Shown here: piece by piece, positions 1 to 5,851 of the stretch
Layout: every line of letters begins with the position of its first letter
Numbering within the stretch: the first letter of the stretch is position 1
Virus record (IMG/VR): IMGVR_UViG_2563366923_000007
DNA length: 6,785 nucleotides
Origin: a virus
Taxonomy: Duplodnaviria > Heunggongvirae > Uroviricota > Caudoviricetes
Direction: 5' to 3' (one strand)
Made by a program: the position numbers and the translations under genes
Notes under the pieces: generated by a model
Told to the model about the DNA's origin: nothing
Databases searched by the model: none
What the model saw: only the letters and a program-made list of their open reading frames with translations

Positions 1-756
1 TTACGGGGTAATGCCAACCGCTGCCGCCACTTTGTCGCCACTAGTGCTTTGTTTTTCGAATTCATCTAAGGCTCTTTCAACATCAGAAAGATACTCTTTG
101 AATGAGTTCAAGATCATGCTTAACGAGCCCCCCATAAATAGGACCTGTTTTCCATCTTTTTTAAAAAAATCAGGATATTTTTCTATAAGTTCAATAATGC
201 TTTTAATATTTTGCCCATCGTTTTCTAAGTATTTTGCATCATTATGCGCACAACTGTTTCTTAATTTTGTTATTTTTTTGATATTCGAATAGTGGGATGT
301 TGACTTCATCCCTATCATTTTTTTGATAAATAGATGGCTCCTCTCAAATCCACTTCCTTTGAGATCTGAAACATTTATAGGAGAATGATGTCTATTAGCA
401 AAGTTGTTACAGAATTTTTCTATTTCGTGTTCAAAAATTCCGAATATAGTTAAGAATACTGACCTGCGGATAATACTTGGGTAGTATTCTAAAAACATTT
501 CATCGAGATCTAGCGATGAGCTGGTGAGTCCCATGTAATGATCAATTGACTGATATACACCATCTTCCGGAGATATTTCAATTATATATTCTTCAGGTCC
601 TTTGTCTTTATATTCTGCTATGCCCTTAGCGATTGATGATTCGCTATGAGTGATTAACGTCTCGATAATATCAAATGTTAAGGAGAAGTCGAATATTGGG
701 AATTGAAACAAAAACTTAACCATGCTTGAACCTTTAAGAATCTGATTTAGTAACAT
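1..756 (-). CDS. Hypothetical AT-rich cargo protein (251 aa) with a HEPN-like R-x4-H motif; candidate RNase-type defence or toxin protein
   Basis: Complete ORF; the stop codon TAA is the reverse complement of 1..3. The longest start (ATG 754..756) overlaps the int stop by 23 nt; an alternative ATG at 721..723 (M12) lies 10 nt after the int stop and has an AAAGG Shine-Dalgarno-like sequence about 7 nt upstream, giving 240 aa. Hand counts of a few 60-nt blocks give about 27-35% G+C versus about 55% in a block of the adjacent int. Motif KLRNSCAHND (aa 165-174) fits the HEPN R-[X]4-6-H signature, with an upstream helix-like segment FGIFEHEIEKF. I recognise no close family. Confidence 0.75.
   Translation of the reverse strand: MLLNQILKGSSMVKFLFQFPIFDFSLTFDIIETLITHSESSIAKGIAEYKDKGPEEYIIEISPEDGVYQSIDHYMGLTSSSLDLDEMFLEYYPSIIRRSVFLTIFGIFEHEIEKFCNNFANRHHSPINVSDLKGSGFERSHLFIKKMIGMKSTSHYSNIKKITKLRNSCAHNDAKYLENDGQNIKSIIELIEKYPDFFKKDGKQVLFMGGSLSMILNSFKEYLSDVERALDEFEKQSTSGDKVAAAVGITP
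19..40. repeat. attL core-like direct repeat (cgctgccgccactttgtcgcca)
   Basis: Position-by-position match to 3931..3952 with a single mismatch (c at 30 versus t at 3942). Flanking bases on both sides differ. The two copies bracket the whole phage-like block. Confidence 0.7.
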
Positions 757-1765
757 CCAAAGTTGCTAGTGGATTGAAACGAAGAGCTGTCTCTAAGTGA
801 TCAGGTGATAGATGAGCATAACGCATAGTCATTTTTATGTCGTGATGTCCGAGGATTTTTTGCAAAGCAAGGATGTTTCCACCCGACATCATGAAATGCG
901 CCGCAAACGTATGACGCAGAACGTGTGTAAGTTGACCGCGAGGGAGCACGATAGACGTTTTTTCCATCACGGATAAAAATTGAAAATAGCAGTCTGTGAA
1001 GAAATTGAACCCATCAAGCGCTATGATCTCTTCATAAAGCTCTTTACTGATAGGGATGCTTCTGTTTTTCTTCCCCTTCGTTCTTACAAAGGTAATTCGG
1101 TATTTGGTCACCTGTGATCGGGTAAGGTTTATTGCTTCTCGCCAGCGTGCGCCTGTGCTTAAGCATATCTTGACTACCAGTGCCAGAATTGGGTCCTGAC
1201 GTTTGCAATCATCCAGCAGTTCAACAATCTGCTCATGGGTAAGCCATGCCATCTCTTTTTCTGCGATGGTGAATTTTCGCATGTTCTCCAGTGGGTTTGG
1301 ATACGACCATTCGCCCAGGCGGGATAGTTCGCTAAAAACACTACTTAGATAGCTTTGCTCCAGGTTAATGGTGACCGGGCTGGCCCCTTTCTTCCATTTC
1401 TCGCTGAAGTAGATCTCACCTGTCAGTCGTTTATCTCGATAATGGGCAAACATTTTAGATGTGAGATCGGTTGCAAGGGGATTGCCCAGAGCGTCAACCA
1501 TCAGCAGCAATTTGTCATAGACATGCTGCCCAGCAGTCAGAGATTTACCATGTAGTTTGAACCATAGCTCAACCACGTCTTTCAGGGTTCGACGATCTAC
1601 TGATTCGCCCAGCCAGGGCTTTGCTTCGGTTTCTTCCATCGTGTGACGCTCAAAAGCCAGTGCTTCGCCTTTGGTGGCGAATTGTTTACGCACACGACGC
1701 CCACTACGTCCGGCGGGGTAACATTCGCAAAGCCATTTTCCTGTGGTGAGTTTTCGTACTGCCAT
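734..1765 (-). CDS. int: Phage tyrosine integrase (P2/186-like site-specific recombinase)
   Basis: Translation contains the tyrosine-recombinase signatures: STGARWREA (box I Arg), HVLRHTFA (H-x-x-R) and GHHDIKMTMRYAHL (catalytic Tyr). Likely start is ATG 1763..1765 (MAVRKLTTGKW..., 343 aa) with GGAGGG 7 nt upstream. The track ORF extends to 1843 but that upstream part has no Shine-Dalgarno sequence. Confidence 0.93.
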   Translation of the reverse strand: MAVRKLTTGKWLCECYPAGRSGRRVRKQFATKGEALAFERHTMEETEAKPWLGESVDRRTLKDVVELWFKLHGKSLTAGQHVYDKLLLMVDALGNPLATDLTSKMFAHYRDKRLTGEIYFSEKWKKGASPVTINLEQSYLSSVFSELSRLGEWSYPNPLENMRKFTIAEKEMAWLTHEQIVELLDDCKRQDPILALVVKICLSTGARWREAINLTRSQVTKYRITFVRTKGKKNRSIPISKELYEEIIALDGFNFFTDCYFQFLSVMEKTSIVLPRGQLTHVLRHTFAAHFMMSGGNILALQKILGHHDIKMTMRYAHLSPDHLETALRFNPLATLDVTKSDS

Positions 1766-1951
1766 AAAAAATGCCCTCCAATAGAGAGCATTTTTACTGT
1801 ATGTATAACCAGTGTCAATGTATGAAATCTTGCGACCATACATCTCACTGAAGCCATAATGAAGTTGGCTATTTTTTGCTATGTGAGTATGTGACTTTTG
1901 CGGTTAGCCTGCGGCTCATTGTTATATTAGGCGCAGATATAAAAGCAAAAA

Positions 1952-2143
1952 TTATCGCGAGTTTTTAGTACAGATTTTTTTTGATTTACTAATAGTTCCA
2001 TCATTGCAAACGAACTTTCCATCGGAGGTACAGTGAGAGACACCTCCCTTTTTCCCAGAACAAGGATAATTTTTAGCATAGGTAGTTAGTGGGTTTAATA
2101 ACAAAGAGCATGATAAAACCACAAAAAATACCTTACCAAGCAT
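1952..2143 (-). CDS. Small secreted Cys-rich, Lys-rich protein (63 aa precursor; predicted signal peptide, mature about 40 aa with 4 Cys)
   Basis: ATG at 2141..2143 is preceded by GGGAGG about 5 nt upstream, directly after the cI stop at 2159..2161, so it is probably co-transcribed with cI and int. N-terminus [23 protein letters not shown] has the n/h/c-region look of an SPase I signal peptide. Mature part [40 protein letters not shown]. Moderately AT-rich. Confidence 0.6.
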
Positions 2144-2158
2144 AGTTTCCTCCCGGTA

Positions 2159-2728
2159 TTACCTAACGTACTTAATTGTTAAACTTATAATTTTTCCAAT
2201 TATTTCAACATCTTCTATCTTGCACTCGAAGGCTCTGTTTCCACCTTCAACGAAGATTCTTCCACCGGGTAAACGAGTAATGTCGCGGATTGTTATTTCG
2301 CCATCAATACTTATTACCCATTTACCATCACGTATATCATCAAATTCTTTATCACAAATAAATTCAGAATTGTTATCTGTGATGACAAAAGGTTTTTTAA
2401 ACGTAGAGGGTAGAAATCCCTTATCAAAAATATAAAAACCGTCTTCACGCAAGGCACCATCAGATAATACATATTTAGCAACTTCCATCGTATTTGTATT
2501 ACCTGAAGTTTGCTTTGAACCATGTCCAGTTGTGAGCCAATTAAGCGAGGTGCCCGTTTCAAGGGCGCACTGGATTACCCATTCTGCTGGGAATGAGTCA
2601 CGCATGTAGCGTGTAGCGAGTGTACTTTTAGAGATTCCTAAATGATCGCACAACGCCTGTCGAGTTTTGAATCCATAAGCTTCTACCATGCGCTCTATAG
2701 CGCCTCGTCCGCCTTTCTCCAAATTCAT
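2159..2728 (-). CDS. cI: Phage 186 CI-like immunity repressor (N-terminal HTH, C-terminal oligomerisation domain)
   Basis: About 190 aa, matching the size of 186 CI. Shows the N-terminal pattern EAYGF...LCDHLGISKSTLATRY and the C-terminal RLPGGRIFVEGG...FEC that I recall for 186 CI-type repressors. Sits divergent to an Apl/Cox-like gene and upstream of int, as in 186. Likely start is ATG 2726..2728 (GGAG 5 nt upstream); the track begins at GTG 2734. Confidence 0.8.
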   Translation of the reverse strand: MNLEKGGRGAIERMVEAYGFKTRQALCDHLGISKSTLATRYMRDSFPAEWVIQCALETGTSLNWLTTGHGSKQTSGNTNTMEVAKYVLSDGALREDGFYIFDKGFLPSTFKKPFVITDNNSEFICDKEFDDIRDGKWVISIDGEITIRDITRLPGGRIFVEGGNRAFECKIEDVEIIGKIISLTIKYVR

Positions 2729-2853
2729 GGTCACTCCAAGTGAACTTTTATCTTAACGATTTCATCGTGCGATCGTATGTTTATGGTGTTCACAAAATAC
2801 AAACGATCCGTATTCGTCCTGATTAATCATCATTAAACGAGGAATGTTGCATC
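2729..2853. promoter_or_regulatory. Lysis/lysogeny switch region between cI and the apl-like gene; candidate rightward lytic promoter and operator repeats
   Basis: 125-bp divergent intergenic region. Candidate sigma70 promoter on the + strand: TTAACG (2753..2758), 17-bp spacer, TATGTT (2776..2781). Inverted GTGAAC (2740..2745) / GTTCAC (2788..2793) pair. Repeated ATCGT (2764..2768, 2772..2776) and ACGAT (2756..2760, 2803..2807). Two GATC sites. Not verified. Confidence 0.4.
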
Positions 2854-3075
2854 ATGAGACCTAACATTTCAATCACTCTTACCACGCCTCATGTGACTAT
2901 TGAACGCTATAGCGAGCTGACAGGACTGTCCATCGATACCATCAATGACATGTTGGCTGATGGACGCCTTATCCGTCACCGTTTGCGCAAAGATAAAAAA
3001 CGCGAAAAAGTGATGATCAACATAGCAGCCATGACCGTTGATGCGCTTTCAGAATGCAATCTAAACCTTAATTAG
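2854..3075 (+). CDS. Apl/Cox-like small DNA-binding protein (excisionase and lytic-switch regulator class), 73 aa
   Basis: First gene of the rightward operon, divergent from cI, which is the position of apl in 186 and cox in P2. GAGGA lies 10 nt upstream of the ATG. HTH-like segment [23 protein letters not shown]. Assignment is by synteny and size, not sequence identity. Confidence 0.55.
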
Positions 3076-3107
3076 TTCGATTCTGAAATACATCAGAGGC
3101 ATTGACC

Positions 3108-3332
3108 ATGTTTGATTACCAAGTTTCCAAACATCCACATTTTGATGAAGCCTGTCGTGCATTTGCACTGCGCCACAATCTGGTGCAACTGGCAGAACGT
3201 GCAGGCATGAATGTGCAGATTCTGCGGAACAAGCTGAACCCAGCTCAGCCTCATTTATTAACCGCACCAGAAATCTGGCTGCTTACCGATCTGACTGAAG
3301 ATTCAACGCTGGTACCTGGTGGGGACGGATGA
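3108..3332 (+). pseudogene. CII-like HTH regulator, N-terminal fragment (about 74 aa) truncated by an internal prophage deletion
   Basis: ATG 3108 with GAGG 8 nt upstream (track starts at TTG 3102). HTH-like segment [20 protein letters not shown]. Lies immediately downstream of apl, as cII does in 186 (169 aa from memory). The ORF ends after ...DSTLVPGGDG, where the frame runs into gpD-like sequence in another frame. Confidence 0.5.
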
Positions 3333-3621
3333 AAACGTGCTGGTACTTAATCGCACTTATGCCAACCGGAGCAACGCCGAACGAGCGGCAAAAATGCAGT
3401 GGGAACGCCTGCAACGCGGCGTTGCGTCATTCTCGCTACAACTGGCGGAAGGGCGGGCAGATCTCTACACGGAAATGCCAGTGAAAGTCAGTGGCTTTAA
3501 ACAGCCGATAGATGATGCGGAATGGACCATTACGACTCTGACACATACTGTCAGCCCGGATAACGGTTTTACAACCAGTATTGAACTCGAAGTGAAGATT
3601 GATGATTTCGAAATGGAATGA
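3319..3621 (+). pseudogene. Phage tail / late-control protein D (gpD family), C-terminal fragment of about 100 aa
   Basis: The frame is open from 3295 after a TGA at 3292..3294 and has no credible start or Shine-Dalgarno sequence. It sits immediately upstream of ogr, as D does in P2/186 (full-length D is about 390 aa). The C-terminal sequence ...WERLQRGVASF...VSGF...WTIT..THT...GFTTSIELEV is consistent with my recollection of the gpD family. Confidence 0.6.
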
Positions 3622-3646
3622 TTCTTCGCAATGGAGAACTTTTAAG

Positions 3647-3674
3647 TTTGCAAAATGGAATAATAAGGTATCAT
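3647..3674 (+). promoter_or_regulatory. Candidate sigma70 promoter for ogr
   Basis: TTTGCA (3647..3652), 16-bp spacer, TATCAT (3669..3674), then GGGGAG (3696..3701) and the ATG at 3712. Hexamer match only. Confidence 0.35.
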
Positions 3675-3711
3675 TATTGTGAATTTAGCAAAAATGGGGA
3701 GAACTCGAAAA

Positions 3712-3930
3712 ATGATGATTTGCCCACTGTGTGGAAGTGCCGCCCATACTCGCAGCAGTTTTCAGGTATCTTCATTGACCAAAGAGCGTTACAACCAGTG
3801 CCAGAACATTAACTGCAGCCATACTTTTGTTACCCATGAAACTTTTGTTCGTTCGATTGCAACGCCAAAAGAGTCAAATCCGGTTCAGCCGCATCCAATG
3901 AAATCAGGACAGGTGGCGCTCTCTCTTTGA
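3712..3930 (+). CDS. ogr: Ogr/B/Delta-family zinc-finger late-gene transcriptional activator (72 aa)
   Basis: MMICPLCGSAAH...KERYNQCQNINCSHTF... carries the C-x2-C ... C-x4-C zinc-finger spacing and the KERY(H/N)QCQN(V/I)NCS core typical of P2 Ogr. Start ATG 3712 has GGGGAG 10 nt upstream; the track start at GTG 3679 would add 11 residues. The stop TGA at 3928..3930 directly abuts the attR core. Confidence 0.88.
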   Translation: MMICPLCGSAAHTRSSFQVSSLTKERYNQCQNINCSHTFVTHETFVRSIATPKESNPVQPHPMKSGQVALSL

Positions 3931-3952
3931 CGCTGCCGCCATTTTGTCGCCA
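3931..3952. repeat. attR core-like direct repeat (cgctgccgccattttgtcgcca)
   Basis: 21/22 identical to 19..40. Immediately followed by chromosomal sequence leading into ybjL. Confidence 0.7.
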
Positions 3953-4004
3953 TCGTTAAAAAGCAGTGCTTCTAACATCATGATTTTAAAAGGCATAAAT
4001 TTCA

Positions 4005-4053
4005 GACAACAAAAAACCCATCAACCTTGAACCGAAATGGCGGGGTTGATGGG
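4005..4053 (-). terminator. Rho-independent terminator downstream of ybjL
   Basis: 10-bp stem CCCATCAACC (4017..4026) pairs with GGTTGATGGG (4044..4053), 17-nt loop. On the minus strand the stem is followed by TTTTTTGTTG (complement of 4007..4016). Lies about 110 nt after the ybjL stop. Confidence 0.55.
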
Positions 4054-4165
4054 CTCCACAAAATGGGGACATCAAAGAAAAGCAGTGGCACTAATTAAGA
4101 CTGATGCCCTGCGGAAAAGTTCTGCGGTTGTGCAAAAAAATTTCATTTTCAGGGCAACTTCAGTT

Positions 4166-5851
4166 TTATCCTAATCCTGGCCATACCATGACGATGATTG
4201 TCCCTGCCAGCGTCAGCAGGACGTTGGCGATTGCATAGGTGCCCGCATAGCCCAGCGCCGGGATGTTACTGCGAGCTGTATCACTGATGATCTCCATTGC
4301 CGGCGCGCAGGTACGTGCGCCCATCATTGCGCCGAACAACAGCGCGCGGTTCATTCGCAATACATAAGCACCGAACAAGAAACAGATAACCACGGGCACC
4401 AGACTGACAATCAATCCGGCAATCAACATCTGACCGCCAATCGCGCCCAGGCCGTTATTAATACCGCTACCGGCGCTCAGACCAACGCCTGCCATAAACA
4501 CCATCAAGCCGAACTCTTTCACCATGCTTAATGCACCCTGCGGAATGTAACCGAAGGTCGGGTGGTTAGCACGCATAAAGCCCAGCATAATTCCGGCGAA
4601 TAACAACCCGGCAGCGTTCCCCATGCCGAAACTGAATGTGCTGAACTGGAAGGTGATCATCCCGATCATCAGCCCAATAACAAAGAAGGCGCAGAATGCC
4701 AGCAGGTCAGTGACCTGGCTGTGAATCGAGATAAAGCCGATGCGATCGGCGATGGTTTTTACGCGGCGGGCATCGCCGCTGACTTGTAAAACGTCACCTT
4801 TGTTAAGCACGACGTTGTCATCTATCGGCATCTCAATCTGGCTACGAATGACGCGGTTAAGGAAGCAACCGTGATCGGTCAACTTCAGTTGTGCGAGACG
4901 TTTACCTACAGCGTTATGGTTTTTAACGACCACTTCTTCAGTGACGATACGCATGTCGAGAAGGTCACGATCGAAAACTTCTTTACCGTTACGGAAGCTG
5001 GGATCGAGTCGGGCATGGGCGTCGGGATAGCCTACCAACGCTATTTCATCGCCCATTTGTAGCACGGCATCACCGTCTGGATTTGCCAGAATCCCGTTAC
5101 GTCGAATACGTTCAATGTAGCAGCCGGTTTGTCGATAAATACCCAGTTCACGCAGATTTTTGCCGTCGGTCCAGGCCACCAGTTCCGGGCCGACGCGATA
5201 GGCGCGGATCACCGGTAAATAAACCTTACGGTTGGCATCAGTGTCCAGGCCACGTTCGCGGGCGATTTGCTGGGCGCTGGTCTGTAAGTCCTGATGCTGC
5301 AATTTCGGCAAGTAACGCGCACCAACAATCAAACTCACCAGACCGATTAAATAGGTTAAGGCATACCCGAGGCTCAGATTATCCAGTGCCAGTGAGAGCT
5401 GCCTGCTTTCCATGCCGGAATGACGCAGTGTATCGCCAGCACCGACCAGAACCGGTGTCGACGTCATAGAGCCTGCTAACATACCGGCCGTCAGGCCAAT
5501 ATCCCAGCCAAACAGCTTACCTAACCCTAAGGCGATCACCAGCGCACTGCCAACCATCACCAGTGCTAACATTAGGTAATTTTTCCCATCGCGAAAAAAA
5601 ATGGAAAAAAAGTTCGGTCCGGCTTCGACCCCGACGCAGAAAATAAACAGCATAAAGCCAAGATTAAGCGCATCGGTGTTAATGCTGAAATGTTGTTGGC
5701 CTAATAACAGCGATACGACTAAAACGCCAATGGAATTACCCAGTTGGATCGAACCAAGTCGTAACTTTCCGAGACATAGCCCAAGCGCGAGGACCACAAA
5801 TAATAACAGAATGTAATTCCCATTTAACAATTCGGCGACGTTTATATTCAC
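4166..5851 (-). CDS. ybjL: Putative transporter YbjL (AAE-family membrane protein with central cytoplasmic domains), 561 aa
   Basis: Full-length translation [29 protein letters not shown]... matches my recollection of E. coli YbjL in length and sequence. Hydrophobic N- and C-terminal halves with a central soluble region. Start is GTG per the track. Confidence 0.88.

Follow-up and report, generated by a model that had tools for sequence, protein, structure and literature searches.

What does a nearly perfect direct repeat at the two ends of a phage gene block stand for? The question is raised by the DNA studied here, the 6,785-nucleotide stretch of IMG/VR virus record IMGVR_UViG_2563366923_000007 (Caudoviricetes), which is referred to in its full length as the window. 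It carries a prophage remnant that lies next to the host gene ybjL and is related to phages P2 and 186, and it contains two copies of a 22-bp sequence, some 3.9 kb apart. An earlier, sequence-only reading of the window recognized this relationship and placed the element at an integration site other than that of P2, both of which are correct; it also took the repeat for the ends of the element, which is the point at issue. We find that the two 22-mers are very probably the P-arm and P'-arm sites of the integrase (Int) of a 186-type (PhiECO1 / Fels-2 group) P2-like prophage remnant. This is supported by our own analysis of the position of the true junctions, the presence of both copies in the phage attachment site (attP), the match to a known consensus, the architecture of the region, and conservation among relatives, while the binding of Int to the 22-mers and the roles of integration host factor (IHF) and Apl are suggested by sequence comparison.

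The repeat itself was examined first for what can be directly observed. The sequence CGCTGCCGCCACTTTGTCGCCA is found at 19-40, and its second copy, on the same strand at 3931-3952, is identical at 21 of 22 positions, the sole mismatch being the 12th base (C30 versus T3942). Chance can be excluded, as had been claimed, since a search that tolerated up to three mismatches did not recover the 22-mer from any of 200 dinucleotide-preserving shuffles. Ungapped extension of the repeat ends at 22 nt, showing that the 22-mer is not a piece of a larger duplication, a possibility that the earlier reading had raised against itself. The ogr stop codon (TGA, 3928-3930) is followed at once by the right copy, again as previously noted, and the left copy sits within the final codons of an open reading frame (ORF) on the minus strand at 1-756. 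Each 22-mer is made of two tandem 8-mers, TGCCGCCA and TGTCGCCA, 11 bp from start to start, such that the tandem units of both copies read TGCCGCCAyTT and then TGTCGCCAyyn. Bases that vary from copy to copy lie outside the TGYCGCCA cores. This 8-mer occurs five times in the window, compared to 0.49 expected, and four of the five are within the two 22-mers, the fifth being a stray copy in ybjM. The two tandem pairs are as follows.

19..43, plus strand: P' arm, tandem pair of predicted 186-type Int arm-type sites, by consensus match; units TGCCGCCACTT at 22-32 and TGTCGCCACTA at 33-43.
3931..3955, plus strand: P arm, tandem pair of predicted Int arm-type sites, directly after the ogr stop; units TGCCGCCATTT at 3934-3944 and TGTCGCCATCG at 3945-3955.

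An inverted CGCCA unit in the 3' end of ogr (around 3912-3918) was also considered as a third P-arm site, and was rejected on finding that it is not conserved in two related attP sequences, L096 and L097, which are described below.

Arm sites of this group of integrases have been assigned the consensus tgTGGaCa for the P2 type and tgccGCCActt for the 186 type, and the 186-type arms possess a minimum of two direct repeats flanking the core on each side (PMC3448106). The sequence tgccGCCActt is literally that of window positions 22-32, and all four units (TGCCGCCACTT, TGTCGCCACTA, TGCCGCCATTT, TGTCGCCATCG) fit tgccGCCActt / YAYCGCCAYTY, with two units per arm, 11 bp or one helical turn apart, all on the same strand. 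The second form of the consensus is from the phage 186 record of the Dodd/Egan laboratory (NC_001317), in which attP is flanked on both sides by predicted Int arm-type sequences YAYCGCCAYTY and by IHF sites; the int side further has five Apl sites, and orf69 separates attP from int. In our own scan of this record, both arms were found to hold tandem 186 units spaced by 11-12 bp. The curated P2 record (NC_001895) lists, from the ogr terminator onward, the Int P arm, IHF, core, Cox and Int P' arm, the last of these within the 3' end of int; each P2 arm contains two TGTGGACA-like 8-mers, 11 bp apart. These P2-type units are absent from the window, which has only two one-mismatch matches to TGTGGACA, fewer than the 5.1 due to chance, and neither of them in an arm. 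The integrase agrees with this assignment in its sequence.

734..1765, minus strand: int, 186-type tyrosine integrase of 343 amino acids, with Pfam domains Int_N and Phage_integrase.

It is 56% identical to 186 Int, 35% to P2 Int, and 97% to the Int of Klebsiella phage KP12. Three N-terminal residues have been proposed to discriminate 186-type from P2-type arm recognition (PMC3448106); the window Int has W11/E14/Y16, as does 186 Int, whereas P2 Int has Y/D/R at those positions.

Comparison with known systems places the element more exactly. It is like 186 in the unit motif, in the direct tandem units on both arms, in having a B/ogr homologue beside the P arm and int beside the P' arm, and in the small extra gene between attP and int (orf69 in 186). 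It is unlike 186 in its core, which in 186 is the 3' terminus of ileY, a tRNA-Ile gene, and here is part of the ybjL terminator; the arm-to-core distances also differ, and 186 has a third unit on one arm where the window has two per arm. With P2 it shares the order of ogr terminator, P arm, core, and P' arm in the int 3' end, as well as two 8-mers per arm 11 bp apart, but it differs in the arm motif, in an Int of low identity, and in the core and host site. PhiECO1, PhiECO2, PhiECO3, PhiSEN1, 4LV2017 and KP12 have in common with it the site between rcdA and ybjL, the core AACAAAAAACCCAT, the int/cI/apl/cII module, and the arm 22-mers; unlike the PhiECO1 group, the window copy is a deletion remnant of about 4.1 kb (cII' fused to D') whose int and P' arm are separated by a 251-residue cargo gene. 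In phage lambda, the integrase is heterobivalent and has the arm-type sites P1, P2 and P'1-P'3; its N-terminal domain binds these sites far from the core, and each prophage end retains arm sites inside the junction. The lambda motif, site number and arrangement are unrelated to those of the window, and lambda int does not overlap the P' arm.

It could be argued that the same 22-mers are operators for the Apl/Cox directionality factor, CI or IHF, and not sites for Int, because operators of recombination directionality factors are also direct repeats 10-11 bp apart and are also present in attP (PMC7498355). However, the Apl/Cox sites of 186 and P2 are confined to the P' side, where they stand between core and Int arm site, whereas the 22-mers are on both sides; such a factor requires at least three neighboring operators; and operators for Apl or CI must recur in the cI-apl switch, where TGYCGCCA is absent (2735-2853). 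The motif, moreover, is the consensus assigned to Int by two independent sources. Operators are thus an unlikely explanation, with only a slim chance of being right.

The explanation offered by the sequence-only reading was that the 22-mer is the attachment core that was duplicated by integration, so that its two copies mark the exact ends of the element and an empty site should have a single 22-mer joining position 18 to position 3953. This was attractive, as a near-perfect direct repeat brackets all phage genes and its right copy abuts the ogr stop. The empty site of Escherichia coli K-12 MG1655 is different: it reads rcdA-stop..gataACAAAAAACCCATcaacc, in which rcdA-stop tagataagttttagatAACAAAAAACCCATcaaccttgaacc... 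leads straight into the ybjL terminator. The 22-mer is absent from the K-12 rcdA-ybjL region, even with up to three mismatches allowed, and the flanks meet at the 14-mer AACAAAAAACCCAT. The features that define the true junctions are listed here.

1..18, plus strand: phage P'-arm DNA, not host; identical to the KP12 attP segment ttacggggtaatgccaac, contiguous with the core.
3953..4007, plus strand: P-arm spacer, 55 bp of phage DNA, present in phage attP and absent from the K-12 empty site.
4008..4021, plus strand: attR copy of the common core AACAAAAAACCCAT (14 bp), the region of strand exchange.
4008..4056, minus strand: ybjL intrinsic terminator, intact at attR (fold of -24.1 kcal/mol, K-12 hairpin identical).

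Homology of the window to empty-site genomes begins at about 3995-4008, not at 3953. When an attR probe (3880-4070) was compared with 5426 complete E. coli genomes, 5417 matched; the probe was fully covered in 1102 of them (~20%), while the remaining 4315 align only from ~3995, making the occupancy of the rcdA-ybjL site bimodal. The core AACAAAAAACCCAT has one copy only in the window; it is single in the K-12 attB, central in phage attP, and present at both junctions of LR-27, a strain with a related remnant in this position, and of 730V1, which is 100% identical to window 1-1900. In both of these, the left junction consists of the rcdA end, 16 bp, the core, 92 bp of phage sequence, and the left 22-mer, and the right junction of the right 22-mer, 55 bp, the core, and host terminator sequence. 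Phage DNA, in other words, runs on past both copies of the 22-mer to a different duplicated sequence, and the 22-mer does not delimit the element. The exchange itself can be placed within the 14-mer by a T/C polymorphism just 5' of the core, which is gaT in attB and gaC in attP, since attL has the T and attR has the C. Together with the attP evidence given below, these results refute a duplicated 22-bp core, by the criterion that the earlier reading had set for itself. The naming of the repeats as attL and attR is true in the broad sense that they belong to those sites, but neither copy is the crossover or the duplicated core.

The left end of the element can be reconstructed from relatives. 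Window positions 1-18 extend leftward in 730V1 to the core and then to rcdA, and, judging by near-identical relatives, the left core copy must be situated 75-88 bp upstream of position 1 of the window. Read toward the window, the predicted sequence would be the rcdA stop, 16 bp, AACAAAAAACCCAT, ttatgtaaacgggttaatgaaaac...ggtggttat, and window position 1. Because the left core lies there, the window starts inside the element, and the ORF at 1-756 is not the upstream host gene that it had been taken for; it is low-GC phage cargo, the host neighbor being rcdA, outside the window. An identical 251-residue cargo protein was found in three contigs, including 730V1, each with a fuller prophage and with rcdA exactly 104 bp beyond the cargo stop, and about 25 genomes are at least 99.7% identical over window 1-1900. 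The length of the element is about 4.1 kb.

Read on the minus strand, the core is the 3' stem half plus the U-tract of the ybjL intrinsic terminator. Our terminator pattern scan skipped this terminator due to its loop of more than 8 nt, although folding shows the hairpin clearly. At attL, downstream of the cargo/int operon, a hybrid terminator made of a phage hairpin and the host U-tract is seen (L004 5913-5945). The part of the P' arm that separates the core from the 22-mer, in the 60 bp immediately upstream of position 1 (L004 5940-5999), contains AAAACAATAAGTTAG twice, with a spacing of 19 bp and each one mismatch away from the IHF consensus, and also GGTGGTcaGTGGTGGT, whose counterpart in other genera is GTGGCGA, an inverted CGCCA unit; AAAACAATAAGTTAG and GGTGGTcaGTGGTGGT are candidate IHF or Apl/Cox sites. 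On the other side, the minus strand of the P-arm spacer has a predicted site that nearly fits the IHF consensus.

Unintegrated phages provide a view of the same region before it is split. The attP of KP12 has the order ogr stop, CTCTGCCGCCAATTTGTCGCCA, 55 bp, AACAAAAAACCCAT, 92 bp, CGCTGCCGCCACTTTGTCGCCA, and int 3' end. The Int relatives in IMG/VR (80 loci, nearly all 97-100% identical and ending at the int stop) were uninformative on attP diversity, and were replaced by a gapped pattern scan of IMG/VR and by GTDB species representatives; scanning IMG/VR for two tandem pairs at the KP12 spacing recovered two further intact attPs, L096 and L097. The L097 phage is more distant (Int 92%, Ogr 73%), and its P-arm spacer and outer flanks are unrelated, with both 22-mers, the core and the distances unchanged. 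The attPs of KP12, L096 and L097 all have two copies of the 22-mer, not one, and because both copies sit together in unintegrated attP, neither is host-derived. The left 22-mer, furthermore, is within the int 3' end in KP12 and in Klebsiella phage 4LV2017, and the record of the latter has attL and attR annotated on AACAAAAAACCCAT, beside the Klebsiella ybjL terminator. In L097 (IMGVR_UViG_3300025711_000083, 2509-5005), ogr and the P arm are about 1 kb apart, and the P' arm and int about 1.3 kb, so that insertion of cargo may take place on both outer sides of attP, the arm-core-arm block staying fixed. The two concentric pairs of direct repeats might also suggest an inner element bounded by the 22-mers that is nested in an older insertion bounded by AACAAAAAACCCAT, but this is hardly credible, as an outer shell with a single 22-mer is found in no genome or phage (none among the 5426 genomes, where occupancy is bimodal), free phages carry ogr, 22-mer, core, 22-mer and int as one attP, and 186 and P2 share the two-arm design.

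The identification of the 22-mers as Int arm sites was further examined in 73 Int relatives, each from a different GTDB species and 48-99% identical, in which a same-strand tandem CGCCA pair with 10-12 bp spacing was sought from -60 to +1500 of the int end. The pair is kept in 55 of the 73. At or downstream of the int end, 60 pairs were counted in 108.8 kb, compared to one in 174.6 kb of upstream and int body sequence. It is inside the int tail in 37 loci, and the other 18 have it 60-1300 bp past int, a position suggestive of cargo insertion. The AACAAAAAACCCAT core, in contrast, is present in only 15 of the 55, at a constant distance and only where Int is at least 85% identical, the other 40 using other sites; a scan of these 40 for tRNA genes found none. 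Arms that are conserved while cores vary are the expected signature of arm-type sites.

Several points weigh on the other side. The binding of Int at the 22-mers is deduced by comparison of sequences, and even the arm sites of phage 186 are labelled 'predicted' in its own record. The left core is off the window, and its position is derived from 730V1, the two other contigs with the identical cargo, and the ~25 genomes. The 37 pairs inside int are always in one reading frame, such that their conservation could owe something to selection on the Int tail as a protein; nonetheless, the P copy and the 186 arms, both non-coding, and the cargo cases speak for constraint at the DNA level. Finally, the exact cII'-D' junction of the window is absent from the 5426 complete RefSeq E. 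coli genomes, i.e., no complete genome was found with this particular deletion.

By the paradigm of P2, 186 and lambda, the mechanism would be as follows. In the attP of the free phage, the P pair follows ogr, the core lies 55 bp further on, and 92 bp separate the core from the P' pair, after which comes int. The N-terminal domain of Int would bind the arm units and its core-binding and catalytic domains would act on the core, while IHF and Apl/Cox would bend the arms for the assembly of the intasome. Strand exchange would then occur in the 14-bp core, within the ybjL terminator between rcdA and ybjL. Integration would separate the arms, leaving one pair just inside each prophage end, where they would appear as a direct repeat that brackets the phage genes.

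The ORF that covers the left 22-mer merits separate description.

1..756, minus strand: cargo ORF of 251 amino acids, ~34% GC, with a likely true start at M12 (721-723).

No homologue of it has been characterised; its family is unnamed and is found in Enterobacterales and Vibrionaceae. The motif LRNSCAHND (Rx4H; R166-N-S-C-A-H171) is invariant in 16 cargo homologues. The protein scored 17.2 bits against Pfam HEPN_RiboL-PSP, below the cutoff of 28.4, and matched PADLOC HEC-01A with an expectation value (E) of 0.005; its top Foldseek matches in PDB were HepT toxins (E 0.17-0.34, not significant). A sequence search of PDB returned nothing meaningful, and NCBIfam no match. Assignment to HEPN is therefore tentative. 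More can be said of the C-terminus. Distant homologues end near residue 238, and an extra SGDKV(A/T)(A/V)VG(I/T)TP is present only in close ones (76-96% identical; P0001, P0002, P0005, P0012). The same sequence is the Int C-terminus in cargo-free phages, the KP12 Int ending in PSGDKVAAAVGITP, and the last 13 cargo codons plus stop are thus an orphaned int tail (SGDKVAAAVGITP) that overlaps the P' arm sites; in the AlphaFold model of the cargo (mean predicted local distance difference test score, 82), this tail is disordered. Because the tail of the close homologues is the Int C-terminus of cargo-free phages, the cargo must have entered the phage between int and the P' arm, and its reading frame crosses the arm sites into the orphaned int tail. 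The int stop (734-736) and the start of the cargo ORF (754-756) overlap by 23 nt, and the window Int ends in ..NPLATLDVTKSDS as opposed to the ancestral ..NPLATLPSGDKVAAAVGITP, diverging after the conserved NPLATL; this divergence marks the breakpoint of the insertion, by which the C-terminal tail of Int was replaced. An att-int cargo hotspot has already been published (PMC13586616). A possible, though rather doubtful, extension is that the P' arm sites, by doubling as the last int codons, fix a hard boundary for this hotspot, and that the HEPN-like cargo may be a phage-borne gene of defence or toxin function, as yet uncharacterised. If true, the obligate overlap of a recombination site with a coding sequence could shape cargo acquisition.

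The remaining genes of the remnant are the following.

1952..2143, minus strand: YdcA-like ORF of 63 amino acids (PF27300, NF007463, phrog_6000).
2159..2734, minus strand: 186-type CI repressor (Pfam Phage_CI_repr and Phage_CI_C).
2854..3075, plus strand: apl/cox-like excisionase-repressor of 73 amino acids (phrog_575, Cox-like excisionase, E 6e-31).
3108..3314, plus strand: cII', the 5' part only (Pfam Phage_CP76, residues 12-71 only).
3313..3621, plus strand: D', the 3'-terminal 309 nt of tail gene D, joined to cII' by the deletion.
3712..3930, plus strand: ogr, zinc-finger activator of late genes (Pfam Ogr_Delta; so annotated in LR-27 and strain 200088).

Downstream of ogr are ybjL, ybjM and grxA. 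The YdcA-like ORF, between int and cI, has a hydrophobic N-terminus, possibly a signal peptide, and is conserved in the prophage family. The internal deletion has its breakpoint at 3313/3314, with a 2-bp overlap, and joins cII at about codon 69 to D. Other, independent cII-to-U/D deletions are seen at the same site (e.g., in LR-27 and H120-H128), and this suggests recurrent prophage decay at the rcdA-ybjL site. As the remnant keeps int, apl, cI, attR and, going by its relatives, attL, it may still be capable of excision.

The site itself has been described. PhiECO1, PhiECO2 and PhiECO3 (in E. coli HS, ATCC 8739 and CFT073, respectively) and PhiSEN1 share it (Nilsson, Cardoso-Palacios and Haggard-Ljungquist 2011, PMC3448106). 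The published left end of PhiECO1, 916812, equals the rcdA end in E. coli HS (916795) + 17, and the same offset from the rcdA end gives the first base of the core in LR-27 and 730V1; the spacing from rcdA to the cargo in LR-27 is also that in E. coli HS. The window site is, therefore, the known PhiECO1 site. The arm consensus, the architecture, the heterobivalent Int, and the att-int hotspot are likewise already known, and the only new item is the particular deletion derivative in the window.

For the annotation of P2/186-like prophages, these results call for caution, since the most conspicuous repeat at their ends is the pair of arm sites and not the crossover core. Boundaries called from the 22-mers misplace the left junction by ~92 bp and the right one by ~70 bp, mislabel phage cargo as host genes, and predict the wrong empty site.

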